From positions 36,970-100,969 of the forward strand of contig WOUR01000015.1 of assembly GCA_009772935.1 (NCBI GenBank): 64,000 nucleotides of DNA, in the 5' to 3' direction. Source of the stretch: Rhodospirillaceae bacterium. GTDB taxonomy: Bacteria > Pseudomonadota > Alphaproteobacteria > Reyranellales > Reyranellaceae. The notes under the pieces are model-generated. The model was not told the origin of the DNA, searched no databases, and was given only the letters and a program-made list of their open reading frames with translations. The position numbers and the translations under genes were made by a program. Shown one piece after another: positions 5,206 to 60,810 of this stretch. Position 1 is the first letter of the stretch; the number at the start of each line of letters is the position of its first letter.

Positions 5206-6819
5206 ATGCTGCAACATGGCAGGCGTCCGACAATCGCATCGCGGCACGGCATGGTCGCGGCGGCCCATCCGCTGGCGGCGGCGGCCGGCGCGCGTATCTT
5301 GTCGAGCGGCGGCAATGCCTTCGATGCGGCGGTCGCAACTGCAGCGGCACTGAACGTCGTCGAACCCTACATGTCTGGGCTTGCCGGCCGCGGCGTCGCG
5401 ACCTGCTACATCGCCACCGAAAAGCGTGTCCGCACGCTCGACTTCGTCGGGCCGATCTCGAAGAACTTCCCGATCGACAGGCTGAGCAATCGCGCGCAAT
5501 TGCAGCGCGGGGCCGTGGCCGTCGGCGCGCCGGGCAATCTCGCCGGCTGGTGCGAGCTGAACAGCAGCCACGGCAAGAAGAAGCTGGCGGAGCTCTTCGC
5601 GCCAGCGATCGCCCTTGCACGCGACGGCTTCCAGCTGATCGAATTCAATCTCGAGGAAATGCAGGCCGTCGCGGGCGACCTTGCGACCCACAAGGCGCTG
5701 CATCCCGAATGGTCGCGGGTCTATACCGGCGGTGCCGGCACGGTGAAGCCGGGCTTCGTGCTGAAGCAGCCCGACCTTGCGCGCACCCTCGAGGCGCTGG
5801 CGAGCGAAGGGCCCAGCCTGCTCTACGGCGGCGCGCTGGGCCAGAAGATCCTCGACCGGCTGGACGAGTTGGGCGGCTGCATGGTCATGGACGACCTGCT
5901 GGCCGCCAAGGCCACCTGGCGCGACCCGGTCTCCGTCACCTATCGCGGCCGCACGGTCCACGTGCCGCCCCCGCCCTGTGAGGGTTTCCAGTTCCTGCTG
6001 ACCCTGCGCATCCTGGAAGGCTTCGACCTCGCCGCGATGAAGCGCAATTCGACCGAGCATCTCGACACGGTGCTGCGCGCCGTCCGCCTCGCTGCCGGCG
6101 TGCGCATCGCGGCCGGCGTGCCGTCGCCGCAGAAGCTGGCCGAGATCCTGTCGGACGGCCATGTCGAGATGCTGCGCGCCCGCGTGCGCGACGGTAAGCC
6201 GGTGGTCGGCCCCACCGAACAGTGGATGCCGCCTCAGCAGCCGGTCCCGGCGACCGACGAGAGCCACACCACCTCCTTCTCGATCGCCGACAACGAGGGC
6301 AACCTGATCTGCCTGACACAGAGCCTGGGCAGCGTCTTCGGCTCGGGCGTCGTGGTGCCCGGCACCGGCCTCTGCCTCAACAACTTCCTCTACTGGGCCG
6401 ACGTGAACCCGCAGAGCCCCAACCGCGTAAAGCCGGGCGACCAGCTGCCGATGTGCATGGCGCCGTCGATCTCGACCCGGGACGGCAGCCCGATCCTCGC
6501 GCTGGGCACCCCCGGAAGCTACGGCATCCTGCAGACCCAGCCGCAGGCGATGGTCCAGCATGTCGACTTCGGCCTGCCGCTGCAGCAGGCGATCGAGGCG
6601 CCACGCGGCCGCCTGACCGACGGCGCCGCCGTGCTGCTGGAGTCGCGCCTGTCGCCGGAGGTCCATGCCGACCTTCGCAAGCTCGGACACGACATCACGA
6701 CCGGGCCGGAATGGACCTGGAGCGTGGGCGGCATGCAGGGCGTCGCGGTCGACCCCGAGACCGGTATCTTCACCGGCGGCTGCGATCCCCGCCGCGACGG
6801 CTACTGCGTCCCGGCGTAA
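5206..6819 (+). CDS. ggt: gamma-glutamyltransferase family protein
   Basis: GGNAFDAAVATAAALNVVEPYMSGLAG; HTTSFSIAD (N-terminal nucleophile Thr); LNN; DPRRDG. Confidence 0.9.
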   Translation: MLQHGRRPTIASRHGMVAAAHPLAAAAGARILSSGGNAFDAAVATAAALNVVEPYMSGLAGRGVATCYIATEKRVRTLDFVGPISKNFPIDRLSNRAQLQRGAVAVGAPGNLAGWCELNSSHGKKKLAELFAPAIALARDGFQLIEFNLEEMQAVAGDLATHKALHPEWSRVYTGGAGTVKPGFVLKQPDLARTLEALASEGPSLLYGGALGQKILDRLDELGGCMVMDDLLAAKATWRDPVSVTYRGRTVHVPPPPCEGFQFLLTLRILEGFDLAAMKRNSTEHLDTVLRAVRLAAGVRIAAGVPSPQKLAEILSDGHVEMLRARVRDGKPVVGPTEQWMPPQQPVPATDESHTTSFSIADNEGNLICLTQSLGSVFGSGVVVPGTGLCLNNFLYWADVNPQSPNRVKPGDQLPMCMAPSISTRDGSPILALGTPGSYGILQTQPQAMVQHVDFGLPLQQAIEAPRGRLTDGAAVLLESRLSPEVHADLRKLGHDITTGPEWTWSVGGMQGVAVDPETGIFTGGCDPRRDGYCVPA

Positions 6820-6825
6820 AATCAC

Positions 6826-6902
6826 CTTCCTCCCCATTCAAATGGGGGAGGTAGCGGCGTATCGCGGCTTGTAACCAAGCCACTGAGCCGACGGAGGGTC
6901 AT
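6826..6902. repeat. intergenic palindromic element (CCTCCCC...GGGGGAGG...GACGGAGGG type)
   Basis: Hairpin CCTCCCCAT-TCAA-ATGGGGGAGG right after the ggt stop; resembles alphaproteobacterial intergenic repeats. Confidence 0.55.
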
Positions 6903-7062
6903 GCGTGATCGCTCAGTCTTCGGGGCTCACGGACATCGCCGTGCGATGTCCTGACGCTCGAGGAGCCGAGCTTTGCTCGGCCATTAGGCATTCCTCTTGC
7001 ACGTAGGCGCAAGGCAGGATGGAATGCGTTCCAACAAGAACGTTCAAGAAGGGGATGGGTTG

Positions 7063-47480: not shown

Positions 47481-50375
47481 CTACCACGTCACGCGGAGCC
47501 CCGCGCGAAGTGTCTGCGCCGTGGAGGACGAGCCGATCGCCGCCTGCCATCCGGCAAAGAAGGCCACGCCATCCTCGAGGGCGAAATCGGCGGAAAGACC
47601 CACCAATACCGAATCCGGCGAGATCGGCGCGCTGGTCGACGCAAAAGGCACCGCGGGGGCAGCAGCGAAGGCCGCCTGCGTAGTCGCCGACACGTCGGCG
47701 AATTCGTGCGCCCAACCGAGCAACCCGCGCAAGGCGAGCGAGCGCTGGTCGGCCAGCATGAGAGTCCGGTTCACCGGCAGCGTCAGGGTGCCGCGCAGGC
47801 TGGTAAGCGACTGCCCGTCGATCTCCTGGGCAAGTCCGTTGCTGTTCTGCTCGACGGTGCGCGGCGAGGAGAATCCCGCTGCAGCGAACCCCACCGTGGG
47901 TTCCACCGCCCAACCCTCCCAGGCCAATCGCAACCCTGCGGCGACCTGACCACCCACCCCGGTCGTCACGAGACTGTCCCGCGAGACGCTGTTCCACGCT
48001 CCCAGCGGACGGGTCGTGGTCTGATCGACGCGCAGATAGGACGCCTGGCCGCCGACGAAGAATGATCCGGCGGTGTACTCACCGTAGACCGTTGCCTGCA
48101 TCGCCGATCCGAGGGCCGTCGCACCGTTGCCGGCGAAGGTGTTTGCGCTGCCGCCTCCCAGAGCGACCCCACCGACGAAGCCCGGCGCCAGCTCCACATC
48201 GAGCCCCGCCATCACGCCGGCAAGCGACGATTGGAAGCCCGGGGCGGCCGCCGCGGCGACCTGCGTCCACTGCCCGAAGCCCGAGAGCCAGGCCGTCGTG
48301 CCAAGCGGCCCCGCCACCGTGTTGGGCGCGGCGTTGGGCAGTCCCCCGCAGGCATCGCCACAGGCCATGGCAATGTCTTGGCCACCGCCCTGTCCGGTAC
48401 GGCGGGTGCCCAGCCGCTGGCTGACCTGATCTGCAAAGCCGTAGAAGCCCTGACGTGCCGACAGGATCATGTCGCCATAGAGGCTGGGCGAAAGCTGATC
48501 CAGTGCCTGCGGGATCGATGCGGCCGGCAGGCTGTAGAGCGGCGCGAAGAGCGACTGCGCAAGGCCGCTCATCCGCACGCCTGCCGCGGGACGAAGCACG
48601 TCGAGCGCTTGCCCGACCGAGGCCTGGCTGGCCGTCTGAGGCAGGCCGGCGGCACCGAGGTTGCCGTAGGAAGCGGGCGTTACCACCAGCGAAACAGAGG
48701 ACGGCGCATAAAGAGCATCGAAACGCGTTCCCGCCCCCAAACCGGCCGGCTGGGTAAGGCCGGCGAAGCTTCCCTGCACGCCGCCCTCGGCCGCGACGAC
48801 CATGAACTGCTGCCCGATGGACGGCGTGAAGCTGTTGGTCGCGGCGCCGGTGATGCCGCGCAGGACCGGCTGCAACGTGCCGCCGGCGGTGAAGCCGTTG
48901 CCTGCACCCGACACCACCACGCGGCTGAAGTTGCCGGCCCCGTTGCCGGTTGCCGTTCCGTCGATATCGAGGGAGAGCGTGCTGGCCGCCGCCATGACCA
49001 CCGGCGCGCCGAAAGTGAGGGTTCCCGGGCTGTTGCCCGGCGCCAGCGTGCCACCGCCCAGCACCGTGGTAGCGCCCCGGATCGTTCCCGTGCCCCGGAG
49101 CGTGCCTTGCGCAGAGACCGGCGAGACGATCAAACCATCAACGGACAGGGCGGCGCCGGCCTCGATCGTCGTGATACCGGTATAGGTGCTGTTTCCGGCG
49201 AAGGTGACGCTTCCGCCAAGTCCGCTGTTGGCGATGATGAGGTTGCCCGGCGTACCGGGCACCGCATCGGAGAGCACGCCGGTCAGGACAGCCGCGTTGC
49301 CGCGCAGGTCGAGGCGGTTCGTGGCCGATCCGTCGACCAGGAAATTCCGGCTGTTGACGCCGAAGGTCTCGTCGACCTGGAGCGTGCCGCCGGTGAAGGC
49401 CGGGATGACGGTCGATCCGACATTGCTCAGGAAATAGGTCTGCCCCGCAGCGATGGTCGAAACCGGCATGATGCTGGCCGTTGTCGGAGCGCCGACAGGG
49501 CCGGACAGGGTGTAGGCCCTAAGGGCCATGTTGCCAGTCGTGGCATCTCCCGTGATCTGGCCCGAAAGACTGTCGTACGTCACCCCGAACAGCAGGTTGA
49601 AGAAGAGGTTTCCCTCGGGTGTCATCGAGCCCAGCACGGTAAAATTGCCAACCAGGCTGTCGAGCGGTGCGGCGCCGACGCCCCAGTAGTATCCGTTGCT
49701 GTAGCCCGTGATCTTGAAGGTGCCGGGCGTCGCCGTGCCGAACACGGTGGGGCTCGAGACCTGCCAGGTGGTGCCGGCGGTCCAGCGCCATTCCGGGGAG
49801 GTGATGTCGGCGCTGATATACTGCGTCGGCGAAGGCGGCGTGAACACGGCCGGATTGTAGGGCGCCATGTAGGCCCAGTGCGTGACCAGCAGCGAGGTGC
49901 CGGTGATCATCTGCATTTCCATCAGCGGCACGCCGCCGATTTCCCGCATCTGGCCGATGCCCACGATGGTCGCGCTGTCTGGAGACGTGAATTCGATCCG
50001 GATCTGCCCTGTCTCGGTCACGAGTCCATGCATGGCCGAGAAGGTGGGCGGCGTGACGGTCGGACCGATGGCGAACGTCGCCGCGCTCTGCCCGGTGAAC
50101 GAGCCGTTGGTGACGGTTCCCAGGGACCACAGGGTCTGGTCGCCGATCGAAAAGGGATTGGTGATGTTACTCCGGTTGCCGCTCGCGTAGGCGACCAGGT
50201 TGGGGATCGCCACGTACCAGTTCGTGTTGGACAGAAGCGCGTCCCAGCGCGTGTCCTGCGCGGACGCGGTTGCCGTCGAGGATACGACACTGGCCAGGAC
50301 CAATGCCGACAGGCGCGCGCCTCTTCCCGTACCCCTTGCGCTCCTGCGGCGCCTCCCGCTACGCGACGCGTCCAC
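47481..50375 (-). CDS. autotransporter (type Va) with passenger, beta-strand repeat and C-terminal beta-barrel
   Basis: Signal peptide; TFAGNSTYTGITTIEAG repeat; GWAHEF; C-terminal GLRVTW; start approximate. Confidence 0.9.
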   Translation of the reverse strand: MDASRSGRRRRSARGTGRGARLSALVLASVVSSTATASAQDTRWDALLSNTNWYVAIPNLVAYASGNRSNITNPFSIGDQTLWSLGTVTNGSFTGQSAATFAIGPTVTPPTFSAMHGLVTETGQIRIEFTSPDSATIVGIGQMREIGGVPLMEMQMITGTSLLVTHWAYMAPYNPAVFTPPSPTQYISADITSPEWRWTAGTTWQVSSPTVFGTATPGTFKITGYSNGYYWGVGAAPLDSLVGNFTVLGSMTPEGNLFFNLLFGVTYDSLSGQITGDATTGNMALRAYTLSGPVGAPTTASIMPVSTIAAGQTYFLSNVGSTVIPAFTGGTLQVDETFGVNSRNFLVDGSATNRLDLRGNAAVLTGVLSDAVPGTPGNLIIANSGLGGSVTFAGNSTYTGITTIEAGAALSVDGLIVSPVSAQGTLRGTGTIRGATTVLGGGTLAPGNSPGTLTFGAPVVMAAASTLSLDIDGTATGNGAGNFSRVVVSGAGNGFTAGGTLQPVLRGITGAATNSFTPSIGQQFMVVAAEGGVQGSFAGLTQPAGLGAGTRFDALYAPSSVSLVVTPASYGNLGAAGLPQTASQASVGQALDVLRPAAGVRMSGLAQSLFAPLYSLPAASIPQALDQLSPSLYGDMILSARQGFYGFADQVSQRLGTRRTGQGGGQDIAMACGDACGGLPNAAPNTVAGPLGTTAWLSGFGQWTQVAAAAAPGFQSSLAGVMAGLDVELAPGFVGGVALGGGSANTFAGNGATALGSAMQATVYGEYTAGSFFVGGQASYLRVDQTTTRPLGAWNSVSRDSLVTTGVGGQVAAGLRLAWEGWAVEPTVGFAAAGFSSPRTVEQNSNGLAQEIDGQSLTSLRGTLTLPVNRTLMLADQRSLALRGLLGWAHEFADVSATTQAAFAAAPAVPFASTSAPISPDSVLVGLSADFALEDGVAFFAGWQAAIGSSSTAQTLRAGLRVTW

Positions 50376-53009: not shown

Positions 53010-53810
53010 TCATTCCCTTTCTCCGCGTTCAGCGCCGTCGGCGTCCTGGAAGCGCGAGAAGACGTCGCGCAACAGGTCCGGCGCCGTCCGTGCAGGGACG
53101 CGCGACGGCACCTCGTCGGCGTACCGCAGTGCATAGACGAGAGGCATCCAGGACACGCCCGCGTCCTCGCTGTCGGCCAGCAACAACGCCCGCGAGGGGC
53201 GCGCCGGAAGCGCGACCGTCTCGATGGTATCGGGTGCAGGCGACACGCACTTGGCCGCGGGTGAGGTGACGAGATATTGCCGGCAACTGAGCGGCCGGTC
53301 GGGATGGATGGAACAGGCCTCGTTCTCGAGAAACGGGCAGGCAACGCCTTGCCGGAAGTAGCGCATGCCGAGACCGGCGGTCGAATCAGTTACTTCCTCT
53401 CTCGCGGCGTCGATCTCTCTGGTCACGCCACCGGAATGAAGCGTCTGCAATGCCGCGGCGAAGCGGCGTCGAATCTCTTCGCGCCGCGGCCCCGGCATGG
53501 CGGCGACCAGCGCGGCGAGTGCGCGCGCTTCGGCTTGCGATATCGGCACGAGCTGGCGGCAACAGGCTCCGCAGCCCGCGCGGCAGGAGATGGTGCGCCC
53601 CGCTGACTCGGCGACCTCGACACCCCGGTTGACCACGAAATCGGTCAACCCCTGCAAGATCGGCAGCACGTCCTCGAAGCCGATGGGGCCGGAAGGCACG
53701 GCCATTTCGAGCGTGACCGGCTCCCCGCCGAGAACCAGCACGACCCGTCCGACGACCAGCGCGTCACGCGCCGGGTCGCCTGCCAGAAGCTGCAGCGTCG
53801 CTTCGCTCAA
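53010..53810 (-). CDS. YkgJ family Cys-cluster (putative Fe-S/Zn) protein
   Basis: CRAGCGACC, CPFL..EACSIHPDRPLSCR; TTG start overlapping the upstream stop. Confidence 0.85.
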   Translation of the reverse strand: MSEATLQLLAGDPARDALVVGRVVLVLGGEPVTLEMAVPSGPIGFEDVLPILQGLTDFVVNRGVEVAESAGRTISCRAGCGACCRQLVPISQAEARALAALVAAMPGPRREEIRRRFAAALQTLHSGGVTREIDAAREEVTDSTAGLGMRYFRQGVACPFLENEACSIHPDRPLSCRQYLVTSPAAKCVSPAPDTIETVALPARPSRALLLADSEDAGVSWMPLVYALRYADEVPSRVPARTAPDLLRDVFSRFQDADGAERGERE

Positions 53811-54109
53811 CGCCGCTGGGGCGACGGGGTGGCGGTCGCCGGGCCGGTCGTGGAGGGCAGCGCGGTGGAGGCGCCCGCCTTGTCGGTGCGGCAGTACTTG
53901 TCGCCCTTGTACTCGACCAGTGTCCCCTTGCCGGCGACGCAGGCATTGGATGACGCCAAATCCCTGATGTCTATTTTCTGGAAGTTGAAGGAATTGGGAA
54001 GAGCGTCCATCTTCAAGTAGATTGGGTCCGCCGCTTGCGCTGGCACGATGACTGTTCCCAGGTCGAAGGCGACCGCGCCCATCATGATGAGGCCGAGTTC
54101 CTTGCGCAT
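53807..54109 (-). CDS. hypothetical secreted protein (Cys pair, Thr/Pro-rich tail)
   Basis: Signal peptide ending AQA; GGAGAG RBS. Confidence 0.6.
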   Translation of the reverse strand: MRKELGLIMMGAVAFDLGTVIVPAQAADPIYLKMDALPNSFNFQKIDIRDLASSNACVAGKGTLVEYKGDKYCRTDKAGASTALPSTTGPATATPSPQRR

Positions 54110-54131: not shown

Positions 54132-54590
54132 TCAGCGGATTGCGGGTCTCTGCCCTGATGGCGATTCGAGTGACACGGCCTCGCGGCAGACCTTCTGACC
54201 GTTGGCCATCGCCACCATCACGGGCTTGACGGTAACATTGTATGTCGACGTCGCCGCTGTCTGATTGGAGACACCGACCGGATACTTGACGGTGAAGGAA
54301 TAGTTGCCGGCATTGTTCAGCCGGATTGGCACTTCCTCGCCGGCATGGAGGAGGCCCATCATCTGGTCATGCACGACCTGCTGGTTTGCGACGTTGGTGA
54401 AGATGAACCGGTAGGTTGTCGTATTCGGTCCGACCTTGACGAGGATGTTGTAAGCATTGCCGTGGCGCATGAAGCACCCGGCCTGGAAACCGAGTATCTG
54501 CGGGTTCGGCGCCTGTGCTTCTGCCGTCGCCGGCGCCAAGGCAAGCATCGCCACGCCCGGTAACGCGGCCGAAAAGATCCTGAAAAGCAT
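54132..54590 (-). CDS. hypothetical secreted beta-rich protein (two Cys)
   Basis: Signal peptide ending AEA-Q; alternating hydrophobic pattern. Confidence 0.6.
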   Translation of the reverse strand: MLFRIFSAALPGVAMLALAPATAEAQAPNPQILGFQAGCFMRHGNAYNILVKVGPNTTTYRFIFTNVANQQVVHDQMMGLLHAGEEVPIRLNNAGNYSFTVKYPVGVSNQTAATSTYNVTVKPVMVAMANGQKVCREAVSLESPSGQRPAIR

Positions 54591-54686: not shown

Positions 54687-55793
54687 TCACGTCAAGCCCG
54701 CCCTGTGGGCGCACGCCAGGGCCAGCTGCCATTTGGCCCGAAACTCAAGGCATTCCGGCGCAAGCGCGTGCGCCCGGCCATACCAGCTTGCGCTCTCCCC
54801 GTATCGCTCCGCCCGGAAGAGCGAAAGTCCGGCTTCCGCCAGAGCACCAGCGCCAAGGATATTCCTGTCGTAGGCGAATTCGCCGACCAGTGTATCGGCA
54901 TCGATGGCAGCCAGCCGCTCGAAGATCTCGAGAGCCTCGTGCCAGCGGTGCAGGGCAGCGAGCGCCCGCGCCTCCAGACAATCGAGCAGGAGATTGTTCC
55001 CCAGCAACGAGCGTGTTTCACCGATCAGATCGAGCGCCTCGCCGCTCGCGCCTGCGACCAGCCTCTGCCTGGCCAGTTCGGTGAAACACAGCGATTGCTC
55101 CGCCAGCCGACGCGGCGATCGGCGTGCTGCCTCGATGCCCGAATGCCAGGCCCGCTCGGCTTCCGGCAGGCAACCCTTCTCGAGATGGATCGAACCGAGA
55201 TGCCACCAGAGATAGGACCGGTCCGGATCGATCTTCACCTGGCGCGCCAACATGGCCAAGTCGCGCTCGTGCTTGCGGACCGACCCTCCATCATAGCCCA
55301 GGTGATCGATCGTGAGGTCCGTACAGCCCATGGCGCCGCCTTCCCTGTCGACCAGCCGCCCAAGCGAGGGCACGATCGTCTCGTGGAATGCCCCCTCGAA
55401 TCGAATGTCGGGATGGCGTCGGAACAGGCGCAGCTCGCGATAGGCCGTAAGGCCGGTCTGCGGATAGAAGCGCAGACGGGCCGCGCGCAAACTTGGAGCA
55501 GCGAGCTCGTGGTCGAGCATTGCGCGCGTGTACGGGCGAATGCGCTCATCGGCATCGATCTGTAGAATCCAATCGCCGGACGCCCGGTCGAGCGCGAAGT
55601 TGCGCGCCGCGGCGAAATCCTCGCGCCAGACGAAGTCGTGAAGTGTCGCGCCACGGTCAAGCGCAATGGCACGCGTGCGGTCGGTCGATCCGGTATCGAC
55701 GACCACGATCTCGTCGGCGAAGCCTTGCAACGAGTCGAGACAGTCGGGGAGGAATTTCTCTTCGTTCCGGACGATCAGGGTTGCCGAAAGCAT
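54687..55793 (-). CDS. GT2 glycosyltransferase with C-terminal TPR-like helices
   Basis: IVRNEE..L..CLDSL, DEIVVVDTGSTDRT, DFAAARN, DADE (DxD), HLGY; helical repeats after. Confidence 0.9.
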   Translation of the reverse strand: MLSATLIVRNEEKFLPDCLDSLQGFADEIVVVDTGSTDRTRAIALDRGATLHDFVWREDFAAARNFALDRASGDWILQIDADERIRPYTRAMLDHELAAPSLRAARLRFYPQTGLTAYRELRLFRRHPDIRFEGAFHETIVPSLGRLVDREGGAMGCTDLTIDHLGYDGGSVRKHERDLAMLARQVKIDPDRSYLWWHLGSIHLEKGCLPEAERAWHSGIEAARRSPRRLAEQSLCFTELARQRLVAGASGEALDLIGETRSLLGNNLLLDCLEARALAALHRWHEALEIFERLAAIDADTLVGEFAYDRNILGAGALAEAGLSLFRAERYGESASWYGRAHALAPECLEFRAKWQLALACAHRAGLT

Positions 55794-55831
55794 TCCTTGG
55801 CGTCCAACGGCAGCGCGTCGCCAACAGCGGC

Positions 55832-56101
55832 TTAGCGCTTGGCCGGCTCGTTCGCTCTGCCGGTATTGCCGGGAATCGCCGGATCGCCCTGCTTGCTCGC
55901 ACCGCCCGGATTGGAGCGAATGACCGCGTCACCCACGCCGTTGAAGGTCCGGATCGGGTTCTGGGTCTCGGCGAGAGCATCCATCGGAAAGGAGGCCACG
56001 GCCGGCAGCACGAAGGCGCTGTTCAGCAGGAGCTTGCGGAGAAGGTCACGTCGCGATTTGTCGACGCTGGCCAACACGCGAGGATCGATACCGTCTTCCA
56101 T
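55832..56101 (-). CDS. small twin-arginine-leader peptide; candidate RiPP precursor or modified secreted peptide
   Basis: MEDGIDPRVLASVDKSRRDLLRKLLLNSAFVLPAVASFPMDALA followed by a polar Gly/Pro/Asn tail; lies between kinase and GT2. Confidence 0.7.
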   Translation of the reverse strand: MEDGIDPRVLASVDKSRRDLLRKLLLNSAFVLPAVASFPMDALAETQNPIRTFNGVGDAVIRSNPGGASKQGDPAIPGNTGRANEPAKR

Positions 56102-56114
56102 GGACACATTCGTA

Positions 56115-56936
56115 TCAAAGGAGGCCCCTCATCGCAATGACGGCCGACTCCGGATCGCCCAGTTCGACGAGGCAGGTGCGGGCCCCGTCCAGCATGCGGG
56201 CGATGTCACCGATCCATTGCCCCCGTGCCGACGGCGGCGCCGTCGCCTGCGCGAGCAGGCGGCGGGCCATGTCGAGCTTGCCCGTTTCGATCACCCGACT
56301 CCGCGAGCCATGGTTCGCCTCGAGGTAGAAAACCGCGGAAACGGTCGCGGCTGCGATGTTCCAGTTTCTGCCGAAGTCGGTTGGATCGACGGGAAACCAC
56401 CAGTCGCGTGCCGAAGCCCCCTTGCGGGCGACGACGACGGGAAGATCCCGCAGTTGCGGCAGCAAGGCCACGCTGGGCTCGTTCACCCTGAACCGCCAGG
56501 GAAAGGCCATCGCCTGGCCATCGGCCACCAGCACGAGATCGTCGCCGCTCACGTCGTAGCCCTCGAACAGCAAGCGTAGGGCGAGCGTCGTCTTTCCCGA
56601 GTTTCGAGGCCCGGCGATGAGGAAACTCCCGCCGGCAGCTCGCCCGATGGCCGCTCGCAACCGGACATGGTCGGGCAAGGCGGCCAGTGCGTCGCGATGC
56701 ATCCGCCGAAGAAGATTCTCGGCGGCATAGAAGGCGGTCAGTTCGAAGTCGTCGCCGTCCGACCCGCCGCTGATCCTGAATTCGCCGTCGAGTTGCCGGG
56801 CGGCGAGCGTAAGGCGCCGCAGGATGGCCATTGCCTGGTGGGGCGACGGCGCTGCTTCCCGCAGGCGACGGCGTACGTCGTCGCACTCCGTGTCGATCGT
56901 GAACTCCGTGGCAAGGAGCTGGATTCGATCGGACAC
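56115..56936 (-). CDS. HPr kinase (HprK)-related P-loop kinase
   Basis: LIAGPRNSGKTT Walker A, SGDDLVLV, FPWRF; 1-nt gap to pqqD. Confidence 0.72.
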   Translation of the reverse strand: MSDRIQLLATEFTIDTECDDVRRRLREAAPSPHQAMAILRRLTLAARQLDGEFRISGGSDGDDFELTAFYAAENLLRRMHRDALAALPDHVRLRAAIGRAAGGSFLIAGPRNSGKTTLALRLLFEGYDVSGDDLVLVADGQAMAFPWRFRVNEPSVALLPQLRDLPVVVARKGASARDWWFPVDPTDFGRNWNIAAATVSAVFYLEANHGSRSRVIETGKLDMARRLLAQATAPPSARGQWIGDIARMLDGARTCLVELGDPESAVIAMRGLL

Positions 56937-56937
56937 G

Positions 56938-57207
56938 TCAGCCGATCAGGCCTTCGCGTGTGAGCGTCTCCAGGCAGGTCGCGACCGCCTCGATCGGCGG
57001 TTCCGCGAGATCGAACGCCAGTTGCAGCAACTCGGGAAGATCGCCGACGGAATTCCGGCCGTTGCACAACTCGAGGACGACGGCCGCCGTCGCATTGAGA
57101 TAATGGATGCGATCGCGAGCCGGCTGATAGACTATGTAGCCGTCGGCGACGGGATTGATCTCGAGGCCGGATACGGAAGATGGGCATTCGAGCGAGCGCA
57201 TGGGCAT
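56938..57207 (-). CDS. stand-alone PqqD family / RiPP recognition element (RRE) protein
   Basis: GYIVYQPARDRIHYLNATAAVVLELCNGRNSVGDL...LETLTREGLI; only the last ~89 aa of track ORF 56938..58206. Confidence 0.85.
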   Translation of the reverse strand: MPMRSLECPSSVSGLEINPVADGYIVYQPARDRIHYLNATAAVVLELCNGRNSVGDLPELLQLAFDLAEPPIEAVATCLETLTREGLIG

Positions 57208-57270
57208 CGACGGAAGGATGCCCAAGCCCCTATCGGATGGCAAGGTTCGGGGGGACCGGTAACCGTGCCG

Positions 57271-58800
57271 ATGACACGCGACGAACTGGCAACTGCGCTG
57301 AGAGCGGCTGCTGCGTCGCGGGAAGACTTTCCCGAGGATCGTTTCGACGGACGCGGCATCGTCATCTGTGCCGGCGGCGCGCGAATGTTCACCTGCGCCT
57401 GGATATGCATCGGCATGTTGCGGCGCCTCGGTTGCACCCTGCCGATCGAGGTATGGCACCTCGGGAGCGAGGAGATGGGGCCGCCGATGCGCGGCTTGCT
57501 CGCCGAACTCGGCGCCGAGACGATCGATGCGCATGAAGTCGCCAAGCATCACGCCGTCCGCAGGCTCGGCGGCTGGGAACTCAAGCCCTACGCCCTTCTT
57601 CATTCGCGCTTCCGCCAAGTGCTGTTGCTCGATGCGGACAACGTGCCCGTGAAGGATCCGACCGGACTTTTCGACGATCCGGGTTTCCGCGAGACGGGCG
57701 CGATGTTCTGGCCGGATCTGCTGCGCCTGTCGCGCAGCAACGCGATCTGGGCCATCGCCGGCCTGGAGCGCCGCGACTGCGTGTCCTTCGAGTCCGGGCA
57801 GCTTCTGCTCGACAAGTCGAGATGCTGGCGGGCGCTGTTGCTCGCCCACTGGATGAACCAGCGGTCCGAGGACTTCTACGGTATCCTCCACGGCGACAAG
57901 GACACGTTCCTCATCGCCTGGCTGATGCTGGGGCAGCGCCATCATCTCATTCCACACCAGCCCAAGCAGCTCGAGGCGACGATTTGCCAGCGCGGTCCCG
58001 ACGGCAGCATCCTCTTCCAGCATCGCAACGGCGCGAAGTGGGTACTGAGAGGGATCAATCCGGCCATTGAGGGTTTTCGGCGGGAAGCCGACTGTTTTGC
58101 GCTGCTCGCAGACCTCGACGAAAGATGGGACGGCTATGTCTTCAACCCGCCGGGGCGTTCCGGCGCGGCCAAGGCGCTGGAGCGCGGTCTCGCCGCAGTC
58201 CGCCACTTCCGCTACGTTCGCGTTTCATCCGACGAGCGCCGGGTGGAACTGCTGGCCGACCATCGAATCGGTGGTGCCGGCGGCGATGAATTCTACTGGT
58301 ATGTGACCGAGATCGACGCTTCGCCGGTGCTGGTCCTGGCCGGGAACGGCGCAAGCAGCAACCGGCTTCGCCTCGATCCCGATGGCGTGTGGCGCGGTCG
58401 GCTGCCCTACGGCCCCGGCACGCCCGTCGAGCTGGTCCCGCTGACGCCTGGCGCCGTCGCCGTCGCCGTCCGACAGGCGCCGGCGACCGGACAGTGCTTC
58501 GTGCGTGCCCTCCTCGAGCGCGCGTTCGCTGCCTACGAGTCGCTGCCTCGTGATCGGGAGACGACCCGCGATTTCATGGGCTTCCTGCGCACACTCTCGA
58601 TCCTCGATCCCACGGTCAAGGACGATCTGGCCCTGTCGGCGCCCGGCGAGGTCGGAGAAAAGCGCCGCCAGATGATCTCGCTCGCACTCGATGGATGGGC
58701 AGACCATGTCCAGCGACCGGACGGCAGCGGCGGCATCTCGTCGGGCCACGGCTGGAACCGGCATTCCTTCCCGCTCGCGGGTTATGACCCTGCCTCCTGA
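57271..58800 (+). CDS. GT71 (Mannosyl_trans3; Mnn1/Mnn2-like) glycosyltransferase with C-terminal extension
   Basis: RGIVICAG, LPIEVW, KPYALLHSRFRQVLLLDADN, FWPD, ESGQLLLDK, GDKDTF. Confidence 0.85.
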   Translation: MTRDELATALRAAAASREDFPEDRFDGRGIVICAGGARMFTCAWICIGMLRRLGCTLPIEVWHLGSEEMGPPMRGLLAELGAETIDAHEVAKHHAVRRLGGWELKPYALLHSRFRQVLLLDADNVPVKDPTGLFDDPGFRETGAMFWPDLLRLSRSNAIWAIAGLERRDCVSFESGQLLLDKSRCWRALLLAHWMNQRSEDFYGILHGDKDTFLIAWLMLGQRHHLIPHQPKQLEATICQRGPDGSILFQHRNGAKWVLRGINPAIEGFRREADCFALLADLDERWDGYVFNPPGRSGAAKALERGLAAVRHFRYVRVSSDERRVELLADHRIGGAGGDEFYWYVTEIDASPVLVLAGNGASSNRLRLDPDGVWRGRLPYGPGTPVELVPLTPGAVAVAVRQAPATGQCFVRALLERAFAAYESLPRDRETTRDFMGFLRTLSILDPTVKDDLALSAPGEVGEKRRQMISLALDGWADHVQRPDGSGGISSGHGWNRHSFPLAGYDPAS

Positions 58801-59563
58801 ACAAGCCCGCCTCCTCGTCCTCACGCCCGTCAAGGATGCGACGCGCCACCTCGACCTCTATTGGCACAACCTCGCGAAGCTGACCTACCCGGCCAAGGCG
58901 ATCTCGGTCGGATTGCTGGAGAGCGACAGCCGGGACGACACATTCGAGCGGCTTCGCAACAGGCTGGGCGAATTGCGCGCCCGCTACGCGGACGTGGGAC
59001 TCTGGAAGAAGGATTTCGGCTTTCGGATGCCGGAGGACGTCCCGCGCTGGAGCCACCCCTGGCAACTCGAACGCCGGCGCGTGCTCGCAAAGGCCCGCAA
59101 TCATCTCCTCTTCCGGGCAATGGCCGATCACGATTGGATCCTCTGGCTCGATGTCGATGTGGTCGAGTATCCGGCCGACCTTCCACAGCGCCTGATTTCT
59201 ACCGGCCGCGGCATCGTGCATCCCCATTGCGTCCATGACTATGGTGGCCCCACCTTCGACCGCAACGGCTGGCGCGAGCAGGGTCTCGTCCACATGGATG
59301 CGCTGCGCGGCGGACCCGACCTTGTCCGCCTCGACAGCGTCGGCGGAAGCGTGCTGCTGGTGCGCGCCGACATCCATCGCGACGGCCTGATCTTCCCGCC
59401 TTTTCCCTATGGCAAGGGTCATCCCGCCGTGCGCCGGCCTGGACCGTGGGGAGCGCAGATGGAAGGGGAAATCGAAACCGAAGGCCTCGGCATCATGGCG
59501 ACCGAGATGGGACACCAGTGCTGGGGCATGCCCAACCTGGAAGTCCTGCACGCCCGGAACTGA
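58784..59563 (+). CDS. GT62 (Anp1/Mnn9/Van1-like) glycosyltransferase
   Basis: LTYP, KKDFG, ARNHLL, WILWLDVDVVEYP, DSVGG..LLVRADIHRDG..FP, IETEG, GMPN..VLH. Confidence 0.88.
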   Translation: MTLPPEQARLLVLTPVKDATRHLDLYWHNLAKLTYPAKAISVGLLESDSRDDTFERLRNRLGELRARYADVGLWKKDFGFRMPEDVPRWSHPWQLERRRVLAKARNHLLFRAMADHDWILWLDVDVVEYPADLPQRLISTGRGIVHPHCVHDYGGPTFDRNGWREQGLVHMDALRGGPDLVRLDSVGGSVLLVRADIHRDGLIFPPFPYGKGHPAVRRPGPWGAQMEGEIETEGLGIMATEMGHQCWGMPNLEVLHARN

Positions 59564-60810
59564 TGCCGCGGCGGCGGCTTCTCCAGGTGACTCCGGTCAT
59601 GCCGGCTCCCACCGGCGGCGGCCTCGCGATGCGTGCGGCCTCGACGCTGAAGGCCCTGTCGCGTCATTTCGATGTCGACCTGCTCGTCGTGCCGGTCGCC
59701 GGCGCGGCCACGATACCCTCGGATTTCGTTCTCCGGCATGCGGCGACGGTCCAGTGCCTGGACCTGGAGGGCCATCTGGATCCGCACTTCGCCCTGATCG
59801 CCCGCCTGAAGGATCCCGCGCATCGGGAGCAGGCCCTGCGCGCCTATCCCAAGCCCCATCTCAGCCGCTACTGCACCGGCGACGGCGCCCGGTACCTCTA
59901 CCAGTGGCGCGACCGGCGAGCGGTCGCGGCCATACACGTCATGCGTCTCTACCTGGCGCCCTTCGCCGACCTGTTCCTGCGTCTCCCGGACGGCGAACGG
60001 CCGCTCTGCGTCCTCGATCTCGATGACGACGAGCCCCTGACGCGACGCCGCCTGGCCGATCTCCACCTCAGGCGGGGCGACCGCGAGAGCGCCGAACGGG
60101 AACAGAGCGAGCTGCGGAAATACGCCGCCTTCGCCGCTCGGTACCTGCCGGCCTTCGATCGTGTCACGGTCTGCTCCACCACCGACGCGGATCGCCTGGC
60201 CCGGCAGCACACTCGCGCGCGCTTCGCGGTCGTGCCGAACGGCTATGACATGGAGAAGGTGAACCGGCCTACGCCGTCGGCGTCCGGCCCGCTTCGCCTG
60301 CTGTTCGTCGGCACCCTCGACTACTTTCCCAACAGCGACGCCGCGCGCTTCCTCTGCACAGACGTTGGCGAGGCGCTGCACCGCCTTTCGGACCGTGAAA
60401 TGGAGATCGACATCGTCGGCAGCGGCGGCGACGGACTGGCCGGCGACCTCGACGACAGCGGCGCGCGTGTCCACGGTTATGTGCCGAGCGTCACCCCTTT
60501 CTACGCGGCAGCAGACGTCGCCATCATCCCGATTCGTGCCGGCGGCGGCACGCGCATCAAGATCCTGGAAGCGTTCGCCCATCGCGTCCCCGTCGTCAGC
60601 ACGACGATCGGCGCGGAAGGGCTCGACGCGATCGACGGCCAGCACCTGCTTGTCGGCGACGATGCCGAAAGCCTTGCCCGCGCCTGCCTTCGGGTGAAAT
60701 CGTCGCCGGCACTTGCCCACTCCCTTGCGGAGCAGGCCGCGGCCCTGTGCTCGGCGTCGCATGGCGCGGCTGCCATCGAGAAGGCGATCGGCGACGTCTA
60801 TCGCCTGTAG
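59563..60810 (+). CDS. GT4 glycosyltransferase
   Basis: VVPNG, LFVGTLDYFPN.DA, GGGTRIKILEAFA..VPVVST.IGAEG; 1-nt overlap with the upstream stop. Confidence 0.92.
   Translation: MPRRRLLQVTPVMPAPTGGGLAMRAASTLKALSRHFDVDLLVVPVAGAATIPSDFVLRHAATVQCLDLEGHLDPHFALIARLKDPAHREQALRAYPKPHLSRYCTGDGARYLYQWRDRRAVAAIHVMRLYLAPFADLFLRLPDGERPLCVLDLDDDEPLTRRRLADLHLRRGDRESAEREQSELRKYAAFAARYLPAFDRVTVCSTTDADRLARQHTRARFAVVPNGYDMEKVNRPTPSASGPLRLLFVGTLDYFPNSDAARFLCTDVGEALHRLSDREMEIDIVGSGGDGLAGDLDDSGARVHGYVPSVTPFYAAADVAIIPIRAGGGTRIKILEAFAHRVPVVSTTIGAEGLDAIDGQHLLVGDDAESLARACLRVKSSPALAHSLAEQAAALCSASHGAAAIEKAIGDVYRL

Follow-up and report, generated by a model that had tools for sequence, protein, structure and literature searches.

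A small gene in a 64,000-nucleotide stretch of a Rhodospirillaceae bacterium genome (assembly GCA_009772935.1, contig WOUR01000015.1, positions 36,970 to 100,969; hereafter the window) probably encodes the substrate of a conserved, unnamed protein glycosylation pathway. The 89-residue product of this gene (55832-56101, minus strand) would be modified in the cytoplasm under the guidance of a RiPP recognition element (RRE; RiPP, ribosomally synthesized and posttranslationally modified peptide), routed to the twin-arginine translocation (Tat) pathway, and freed of its leader by signal peptidase. The parts established directly are the gene itself and its pattern of selection, an N-terminal module shared across a wide protein family, the synteny of RRE and glycosyltransferase (GT) genes, fusions of RREs with enzymes, and the RRE-like and kinase-like folds of two neighboring proteins. 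We describe the system as leader- and RRE-guided modification, and it may well prove to be of a more distinct kind. A literature search for PqqD/RRE proteins together with Anp1 or other glycosyltransferases, and for RiPPs with twin-arginine signals, returned no paper on this gene set; one paper considered, PMC7174548, has no bearing on Tat export of glycoproteins.

Translation of 55832-56101 gives MEDGIDPRVLASVDKSRRDLLRKLLLNSAFVLPAVASFPMDALA|ETQNPIRTFNGVGDAVIRSNPGGASKQGDPAIPGNTGRANEPAKR, that is, 89 amino acids and a stop codon, which divide into a leader of residues 1 to 44 (55970-56101, minus strand) and a core of residues 45 to 89 (55835-55969, minus strand). The leader contains SRRDLL at residues 16 to 21, within the context S-R-R-D-L-L-R-K, followed by the hydrophobic stretch LLLNSAFVLPAVASF at residues 24 to 38 and, after that stretch, by A-L-A|E at residues 42 to 45 (A42-L-A44|E). 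The string FVLPAV occupies residues 30 to 35. The remaining 45 residues include three Thr, two Ser, no Cys, and no N-x-S/T sequon, and the peptide ends in K-R. An earlier note, made from the letters alone, had listed the SRRDLL motif, the hydrophobic stretch, the cleavage site, and the composition of the remainder, and the translation agreed with it on every one of these details. Three elements of the gene recur below: the twin-arginine codons R17 and R18 within S-R-R-D-L-L-R-K (56048-56053), the codons of F30-V-L-P33-A-V35 in the hydrophobic region (55997-56014), which by their conservation are a candidate RRE contact, and the codon of Asn54 (55940-55942), a candidate modification site that is invariant in the close-family alignment; all three lie on the minus strand.

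The reading frame behaves as a coding sequence. At the three codon positions its GC content is close to 0.65/0.45/0.76, as coding sequence has in this 66% GC genome, and the window as a whole has a GC content of 66%. We found 14 full-length homologs with 53 to 98% identity to the peptide. In the alignment of this close family, residues 1 to 44 are near-invariant, and the rest is variable except for N54, P65, P74, P86, and R89. When the gene was compared with four homologous genes, the ratio of nonsynonymous to synonymous substitution (dN/dS) was 0.10 to 0.16 for the leader, where synonymous changes are near saturation (proportion of synonymous differences, pS, 0.62 to 0.68), and 0.47 to 0.78 for the core. 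Together, the substitution ratios, the homologs, and the coding GC pattern indicate that the gene is translated and under purifying selection, and they bear out the division into a conserved leader and a variable core for which the earlier note had proposed aligning homologs. The position of the start codon is fixed by the homologs, which share the same initial residues (M-E/T-D/N-G/D-I/V-D-P-R-V-L); the stop codon of the upstream gene lies 13 nt ahead of this ATG. Two independent metatranscriptomes, X18 and X19, each gave a single contig on a 3.6-kb stretch, and both contigs (55756-56026 and 55818-56055) overlie the peptide gene, which weakly suggests transcription; X20 contributed a contig at 56737-56943, which corresponds to the 5′ end of the neighboring gene X beside the stop codon of the PqqD-family gene. 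In the interval that separates the peptide gene from the following GT2-TPR gene, no RNA hairpin or attenuator scored better than shuffled sequence (z = 0.26). A scan of the genome for a second copy of the leader, of the kind the earlier note had suggested, found none.

The leader is shared far beyond these close homologs. A profile built from 15 close sequences was searched against 1.84 billion representative proteins, and at a threshold of E ≤ 1e-3 it matched at least 185 proteins (clusters at 50% identity). These proteins, which come mostly from soil and groundwater metagenomes, are 54 to 463 amino acids long and have only the N-terminal ~55 residues in common. Conservation within this module was counted on 148 members with canonical spacing. 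Upstream of the arginine pair, L stands at −7 from the first R in 93% of members and V-D at −4/−3 in 78% and 64%. The first R is found in 81% (K in 19%) and the second in 99%, and the consensus then continues as x, F/L, L/V/I, R/K, K/R. Within the hydrophobic region, G (81%) and A (86%) accompany the F (94%) and P (100%) of F-x-x-P; V or I after P-x (89%) is followed by A (82%), S (96%), and F (97%), then by M after one variable residue (76%) and L after two (86%). An A-x-A site is present further downstream at a fixed position in 46 to 65% of members. F-x-x-P-x-V is the best-conserved part of the whole module, and, judged by these frequencies, the conservation of the leader exceeds what a plain signal peptide, or Tat export, would need. 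We also scanned the peptide and 89 leader segments against Pfam and NCBIfam, and no family model covers the module. Among the 100 nearest ESM Atlas clusters, 99 are unnamed and the one named match is a Tat-signal domain; members of the system are named in databases exclusively as "hypothetical protein" or "PqqD family protein."

The lasso peptide leader motif YxxPxL, located at positions −17 to −12, is recognized in that class by the RRE (PMC10368454), and FVLPAV had been likened to it. The likeness extends to the family, where the same pattern is kept at the F and P frequencies given above, and it fits a role of F-x-x-P-x-V as the predicted RRE contact. The protein that would make this contact is encoded nearby, by a stand-alone PqqD-family gene of 89 codons (56938-57207, minus strand). 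Its product scores 29.7 bits against Pfam PqqD (cut-off, 23.4), and its AlphaFold2 (AF2) model (predicted local distance difference test score [pLDDT], 82) has three strands and three helices. The best Foldseek matches were PqqD (5sxy), leader-bound TbiB1 (5v1u/5v1v), and TfuB1 (6jx3), with template modeling (TM) scores of 0.63 to 0.70, and further matches were to RRE domains of cyclodehydratases and sactisynthases. By profile score and modeled fold, this neighbor is a genuine RRE, as had been proposed. The RRE does not lie on a protein of 422 residues: the 422-codon minus-strand open reading frame (ORF) at 56938-58206 is an artifact in which just the last 89 codons are coding, the rest being antisense to a GT71 gene on the plus strand. 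Frame-specific GC content supports a minus-strand gene only from 57207 to 56938 and the plus-strand GT71 gene from 57271 to 58800. Such an ORF could mislead gene callers. Between loci, the RRE is 56 to 74% identical, though the leaders are ~40% identical and the cargo is unrelated.

To place the pair in context, we mapped the window proteins onto related loci, of which ~17 distinct ones give contexts; the peptides from which loci were reached include an 85-aa peptide, a 192-aa pentapeptide-repeat protein, and a 463-aa Ig-like protein. A single strict pattern search with a narrower alignment gave 4 genome and 7 metagenome loci. The leader gene stands beside an RRE gene in all 14 distinct loci that have at least ~440 nt of upstream flank. 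In the reverse test, which started from PqqD homologs (52 to 64% identity), a leader-bearing gene was found in three of three loci with DNA, and a fourth locus, for which gene order only was available, has the same order with a 169-aa gene at the substrate position. Homologs of the peptide exist, and none was found away from an RRE gene in the 14 peptide-derived and 3 reverse loci. GT62 and GT2-TPR genes accompany the RRE/leader pair in every related locus whose contig extends far enough; a GT4 gene does so in the 14 peptide-derived loci, and GT4 adjoins the RRE gene in most related loci; GT4 was not found in L027, one of the loci reached in reverse. The GT71 gene and gene X, which encodes a kinase-like protein, are present in most loci and absent from L011/L012 and L020, and therefore we do not count them as core parts. 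Of the earlier expectation that homologs would occur together with RRE and kinase genes, the part concerning the RRE holds in every case, whereas the kinase is missing from the loci just named.

Fusions tie the RRE to enzymes: a GT4-RRE fusion is encoded in L010 and an RRE-FkbM methyltransferase fusion in L008/L009 (in L008 at 5798-7015), and L011 encodes a TPR-GT4-GT2 fusion. Some related loci carry additional tailoring genes, among them a GT10 fucosyltransferase homolog (L026 4786-5682 and L027 5941-6840), an epimerase gene, and, in the locus without DNA, a gene for a Stealth-family protein. Since these extra genes vary by locus, the glycan probably differs between lineages. A nucleotidyltransferase gene of family PF14907 (NTP_transf_5) stands beside the GT2-TPR gene at L026 9654-10919, at L027 9698-10945, and in the locus without DNA. 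The PF14907 family also accompanies the HprK-related kinase/PqqD sets of the HPr-rel-A system and some lasso clusters, and this shared neighbor hints at a common ancestry of RRE-kinase modules.

We searched 400 genomes of Pseudomonadota, together with 40 relatives that include 24 members of the same genus, and found the module and the gene block only in the genome of the window, with a first-look filter that may lose short matches. The block was found in Reyranella metagenome-assembled genomes (MAGs) and in a Deltaproteobacteria MAG, and PqqD homologs are annotated in Acetobacteraceae and Deltaproteobacteria MAGs. Because it is absent from the sampled relatives, we regard the locus as a patchy accessory island.

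What follows the leader differs greatly from protein to protein. The window peptide (89 residues) and many leader-bearing relatives (54 to 90 residues) are within the size usual for RiPP precursors, under ~100 residues, and others reach 463 residues with folded domains. In some precursors the leader is followed by a core of ~8 residues, such as IVSNSTTS or SINSSTS, barely more than a sequon. Other cargo includes Thr-rich and His-rich tails, pentapeptide-repeat proteins, and He_PIG Ig-like proteins. Several cargo proteins end in PEP-CTERM-type anchors, which implies that their N-terminus functions in export. N54 of the window peptide aligns with a family Asn that lies exactly 16 residues after A-S-F. 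An Asn at this spacing was present in 76 of 149 proteins of a distant set, in 38 of those 76 as N-x-S/T, and across the cargo N-x-S/T is 1.85-fold enriched (193 observed, 104 in shuffled sequence). Several cargo proteins contain repeated sequons (GNMT, HPNST, SNQT). The statement that the peptide lacks a sequon is therefore true of the window copy but does not carry over to its relatives, which often have N-x-S/T after the leader.

In the window, the RRE and GT71 genes are separated by 63 nt, from which the locus extends as two divergent arms. The minus arm runs in the order PqqD/RRE, X, peptide, GT2-TPR, and Y, and the plus arm in the order GT71, GT62 (Anp1-like), and GT4, with overlapping genes. 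The gene immediately downstream of the peptide gene (54687-55793, minus strand) encodes a 368-aa GT2 glycosyltransferase with a C-terminal tetratricopeptide repeat (TPR) domain, assigned by Pfam Glycos_transf_2 and TPR. Its matches in a PDB sequence search are Listeria GmaR (2.5e-25), a flagellin O-linked N-acetylglucosamine transferase, 7msk (6.4e-11), and SunS (1.3e-9). The plus arm encodes GT71 (57271-58800; Pfam Mannosyl_trans3, 4.1e-36; supported by frame analysis and start codon), GT62 (58784-59563; Pfam Anp1, 3.5e-47; supported by its start codon), which overlaps the GT71 gene by 17 nt, and GT4 (59563-60810; Pfam Glyco_trans_1_4, 4e-21). For GT4, the nearest NCBIfam model is TIGR03087, a glycosyltransferase of the PEP-CTERM/XrtA system, with a score below its cut-off. 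GT71 and GT62 are homologs of the fungal Golgi mannan enzymes (Mnn1-like and Anp1-like, respectively) and stand side by side, a pairing that recurs in most related loci. By hydropathy, the enzymes of the block, GT2-TPR included, have no signal peptide or membrane segment.

Gene X (56115-56936, minus strand) encodes a P-loop protein of 273 residues from a GTG at 56936 or 238 residues from an ATG at 56831. It contains the Walker A motif GPRNSGKT followed by SGDD. A sequence-only search of the PDB gave generic P-loop matches, and the relation to HPr kinase and phosphoenolpyruvate carboxykinase (HprK/PEPCK) became visible by fold search: with an AF2 model at pLDDT 87, Foldseek returned ATP-dependent PEPCK and HprK/P with a probability of 1.0, E-values of 2.5e-5 to 1e-4, and TM scores of 0.37 to 0.56. 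X does not match Pfam Hpr_kinase_C, and its distant homolog P0043 reaches 25 bits where 33.3 are required. An HprK-like RiPP kinase would use a Ser at the C-terminus of the precursor as acceptor, a place where the window peptide has K-R. The designation of X as a kinase is thus upheld at the level of the fold but not by that Pfam model.

Neither the conserved block nor any locus examined encodes a dedicated protease or exporter, as the earlier note had remarked of this locus. The M20 peptidase, cation-efflux, and autotransporter genes of the window are not conserved in homologous loci. At the end of the minus arm, Y (54132-54590) is a protein of 152 residues, identified by translation, with a Sec-type (general secretion) signal. 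It has homologs only in L004-L007, L015, and L016 and is conserved solely in Reyranella-type loci. Y has two Cys, and among its four N-x-S/T sequons is V-S-N-Q-T, which reads I-S-N-Q-S in the L004 homolog; the string S-N-Q-T is the same as that seen after the leader in the wider family. Y may bind the secreted peptide or may itself be another substrate. After Y, the region 53010-54109 (minus strand) encodes a 100-aa signal-peptide protein and a 266-aa CxxCxxCC (YkgJ-like) protein, which are not conserved in homologous loci and therefore probably lie outside the system. Unrelated to the block, a 964-aa autotransporter (47481-50375, minus strand; beta-domain, E 5e-38) is encoded downstream of PepSY_TM and enolase-superfamily genes.

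We propose that the N-terminal ~44 to 50 residues play a dual role, as a Tat-type signal (S-R-R-x-[FL]-L-[RK], a hydrophobic region, and A-x-A) and as a recognition leader for the RRE. The RRE would bind the leader in the cytoplasm, probably at G-x-A-F-x-x-P-x-V-A-S-F, and would present the residues just past the cleavage site to the soluble glycosyltransferases. The GmaR/SunS-like GT2-TPR protein would be the likely initiator and GT4, GT62, and GT71 the likely extenders, and the HprK-fold kinase would also act in most loci. Sugars would likely be attached to the conserved Asn (N54 here, often N-x-S/T in relatives) or to a nearby Ser/Thr. If the RRE and the Tat receptor both engage the F-x-x-P-x-V region, the bound RRE would keep the signal hidden for as long as modification is under way; after release, Tat would export the bulky product and signal peptidase I would remove the leader. 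The lack of a dedicated protease and exporter would then be accounted for, because Tat and signal peptidase I would do both jobs. A bolder form of this proposal, which we advance tentatively and consider possible rather than probable, makes the Tat signal itself a RiPP-style leader whose RRE recruits GT62, GT71, GT4, and GT2-TPR and doubles as a Tat proofreading chaperone. Under that proofreading scheme, an Asn- or Ser/Thr-linked glycan would be built just after the cleavage site and only the finished product would be exported; the ~8-residue cores would serve as primer and export handle in a protein-primed, lipid-carrier-independent secretion of oligosaccharides.

With regard to the export route, the sequence features make Tat more likely than Sec. 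The Tat motif S/T-R-R-x-F-L-K is matched by S-R-R-D-L-L-R-K in the window and, in relaxed form, by 90 of the 148 members (31 of 148 in strict form); the hydrophobic region and the A-x-A signal-peptidase site are present as in Tat signals. Weak matches of the module among 89 members were to TIGR02811 (30/89), SoxL2 (17/89), and TAT_signal_seq (4/89), and all these weak family-level resemblances are to Tat-signal regions. We favor Tat because of the consensus S-R-R-x-F-L-[RK]-K, the n-region of 16 residues in a signal of ~50 residues in total, and the presence of tatC in the genome (E 1.9e-66), and because Tat would be better suited than Sec to cytoplasmic glycans and to folded cargo, pentapeptide repeats for example. 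The rival explanation, that the RRE-recognized leader is a Sec signal or an uncleaved membrane anchor in which R-R or K-R serves RRE contact or the positive-inside rule, is unlikely in our estimation but draws on three observations, each of which also counts against the pathway as we propose it: K-R replaces R-R in 19% of members; curated Tat-signal models barely score the module (Pfam TAT_signal PF10518 in 1 of 89 members, E 0.095; TIGR01409 in 4 of 89, best E 0.065; all weak, with no match of the window peptide); and the hydrophobic region equals the Sec signal of the neighboring protein Y in hydrophobicity. Sec signals are, moreover, found on bufferin RiPP precursors (PMC11626156).

Other observations also speak against an RRE-guided glycosylation pathway. 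Binding, glycosylation, cleavage, and the export route are inferred; the RNA evidence consists of two low-depth contigs from RNA libraries, in which DNA may be present; some loci lack the kinase and GT71; the ~17 loci include many metagenome contigs and several from related lineages; and the window peptide has no N-x-S/T at N54. This last point can equally be enlisted for a different account, in which the module is an unusually conserved export signal, the PqqD-like protein a signal-peptide chaperone that guides no enzyme, and the peptide a periplasmic accessory, while the glycosyltransferases produce a polysaccharide, either free or attached to a lipid. All four glycosyltransferase families are commonly seen in the synthesis of polysaccharides, GT4 is nearest to the glycosyltransferases of PEP-CTERM/exopolysaccharide systems, and GT10, Stealth, and epimerase genes occur in some loci. 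However, the conserved block contains no flippase, polymerase, Wzx/Wzy, ABC exporter, or polyprenyl-phosphate transferase; fusions join the RRE to GT4 and to a methyltransferase; and GT2-TPR is nearest to glycosyltransferases of proteins and peptides. The conserved Asn, the enriched sequons, and the ~8-residue N-S-T cores would be hard to explain in this way, and we judge such an account to be quite unlikely. That the peptide is the precursor of a lasso-type or glycocin-type bacteriocin, and so belongs to a known RiPP class, is highly improbable. Its F-x-x-P-x-V resembles YxxPxL, some lasso clusters likewise contain a PqqD-like RRE that stands alone and an HprK-like kinase (PMC10368454), and GT2-TPR is similar to SunS and to the glycosyltransferase 7msk. 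We nevertheless rejected both memberships on account of gene content and the features of the core. No locus examined has a lasso cyclase (Asn-synthetase-like) or B2 protease (transglutaminase-like), and the core, whether counted from E45 or Q47, does not fit: it does not combine an initial G/A/S/C with D/E at 7 to 9, and the leader has no conserved Thr at −2. The Cys acceptor, disulfide-stapled core, double-glycine leader, and C39/ABC exporter of glycocins are all missing, and the SunS equivalog model TIGR04195 gives 47 bits against a cut-off of 350, over the GT2 region only. The same leader is found on proteins of up to 463 residues, which also speaks against a lasso-type or classical small-RiPP family, and the constant partners are glycosyltransferases.

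If the proposed pathway is correct, one locus would bring together three fields mostly studied apart, namely how RREs recognize RiPP leaders, how bacteria glycosylate proteins, and how Tat exports and proofreads its substrates, and bacterial GT62/GT71 homologs of fungal Golgi mannan enzymes would gain a defined protein substrate. A general-secretion signal would itself be the recognized leader, unlike the dispensable Sec signal of bufferins. To our knowledge, this would also be the first native case of multistep cytoplasmic glycosylation coupled to Tat export. Since the module is portable, occurring on peptides and on Ig-like, pentapeptide-repeat, and PEP-CTERM proteins, it could be adapted as a tag by which bacteria make and export glycoproteins.

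Among known systems, the lasso B1 proteins TbiB1 and TfuB1 are likewise stand-alone PqqD folds encoded beside a small gene whose leader is conserved and whose core varies; the RRE here has 89 residues. The leader here carries an invariant [F/Y]-x-x-P-x-[V/I/L], comparable to the lasso motif, relatives of the present locus encode fusions of the RRE with tailoring enzymes, and an HprK-fold kinase accompanies the RRE, as it does in phosphorylated lasso clusters. In contrast to those systems, the locus described here has no cyclase or B2 protein, its leader is Tat-like with a signal-peptidase site, and its substrates include full-size folded proteins that would be tailored by GT4, GT62, GT71, and GT2-TPR. 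Bufferins and chryseobasin-type lipidated RiPPs, whose precursors carry Sec or lipoprotein signal peptides, offer a second likeness, because there too a general-secretion signal replaces exporter and protease and an RRE-like partner is encoded nearby (PMC11626156, PMC13056109). The Sec-type signal of bufferin precursors is dispensable for modification (PMC11626156), whereas the signal-like region described here is the most conserved part, is presumably recognized, and is Tat-like, and glycosylation would take the place of oxidation by multinuclear nonheme iron-dependent oxidative enzymes (MNIOs). The glycocin pairs SunA/SunS and ThuA/ThuS, as well as GmaR, share the combination of a GT2 enzyme with a TPR-like domain, which in those cases acts directly on a peptide or protein. 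Unlike glycocins, the present system lacks a Cys acceptor, a helical hairpin, a double-glycine leader, and an ABC/C39 exporter, and it has an RRE and three further glycosyltransferases.

Three systems outside the RiPP classes show partial parallels. In accessory Sec (SecA2/SecY2), serine-rich-repeat glycoproteins with a long conserved signal are glycosylated in the cytoplasm by a soluble glycosyltransferase cluster and then exported. That system has a dedicated translocon and no RRE, whereas the locus in the window has no translocon genes and a Tat-like signal. The Tat chaperones TorD, DmsD, and NapD are small cytoplasmic proteins that bind Tat signals and hold the substrate until cofactor maturation. 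An RRE that masks the signal until modification is finished would resemble these proofreading chaperones, which have other folds and serve cofactor insertion, whereas here the fold is PqqD/RRE and the proposed modification is glycosylation. The HPr-rel-A system (TIGR04352-TIGR04355) likewise combines a PqqD-family chaperone with an HprK-like kinase, and weak TIGR04353 matches were obtained here. Their scores of 21 to 29 stay below the cut-off of 35, however, and X matches none of the kinase models of that system, whose description does not extend to the glycosyltransferases and Tat-like substrates that mark the present locus.

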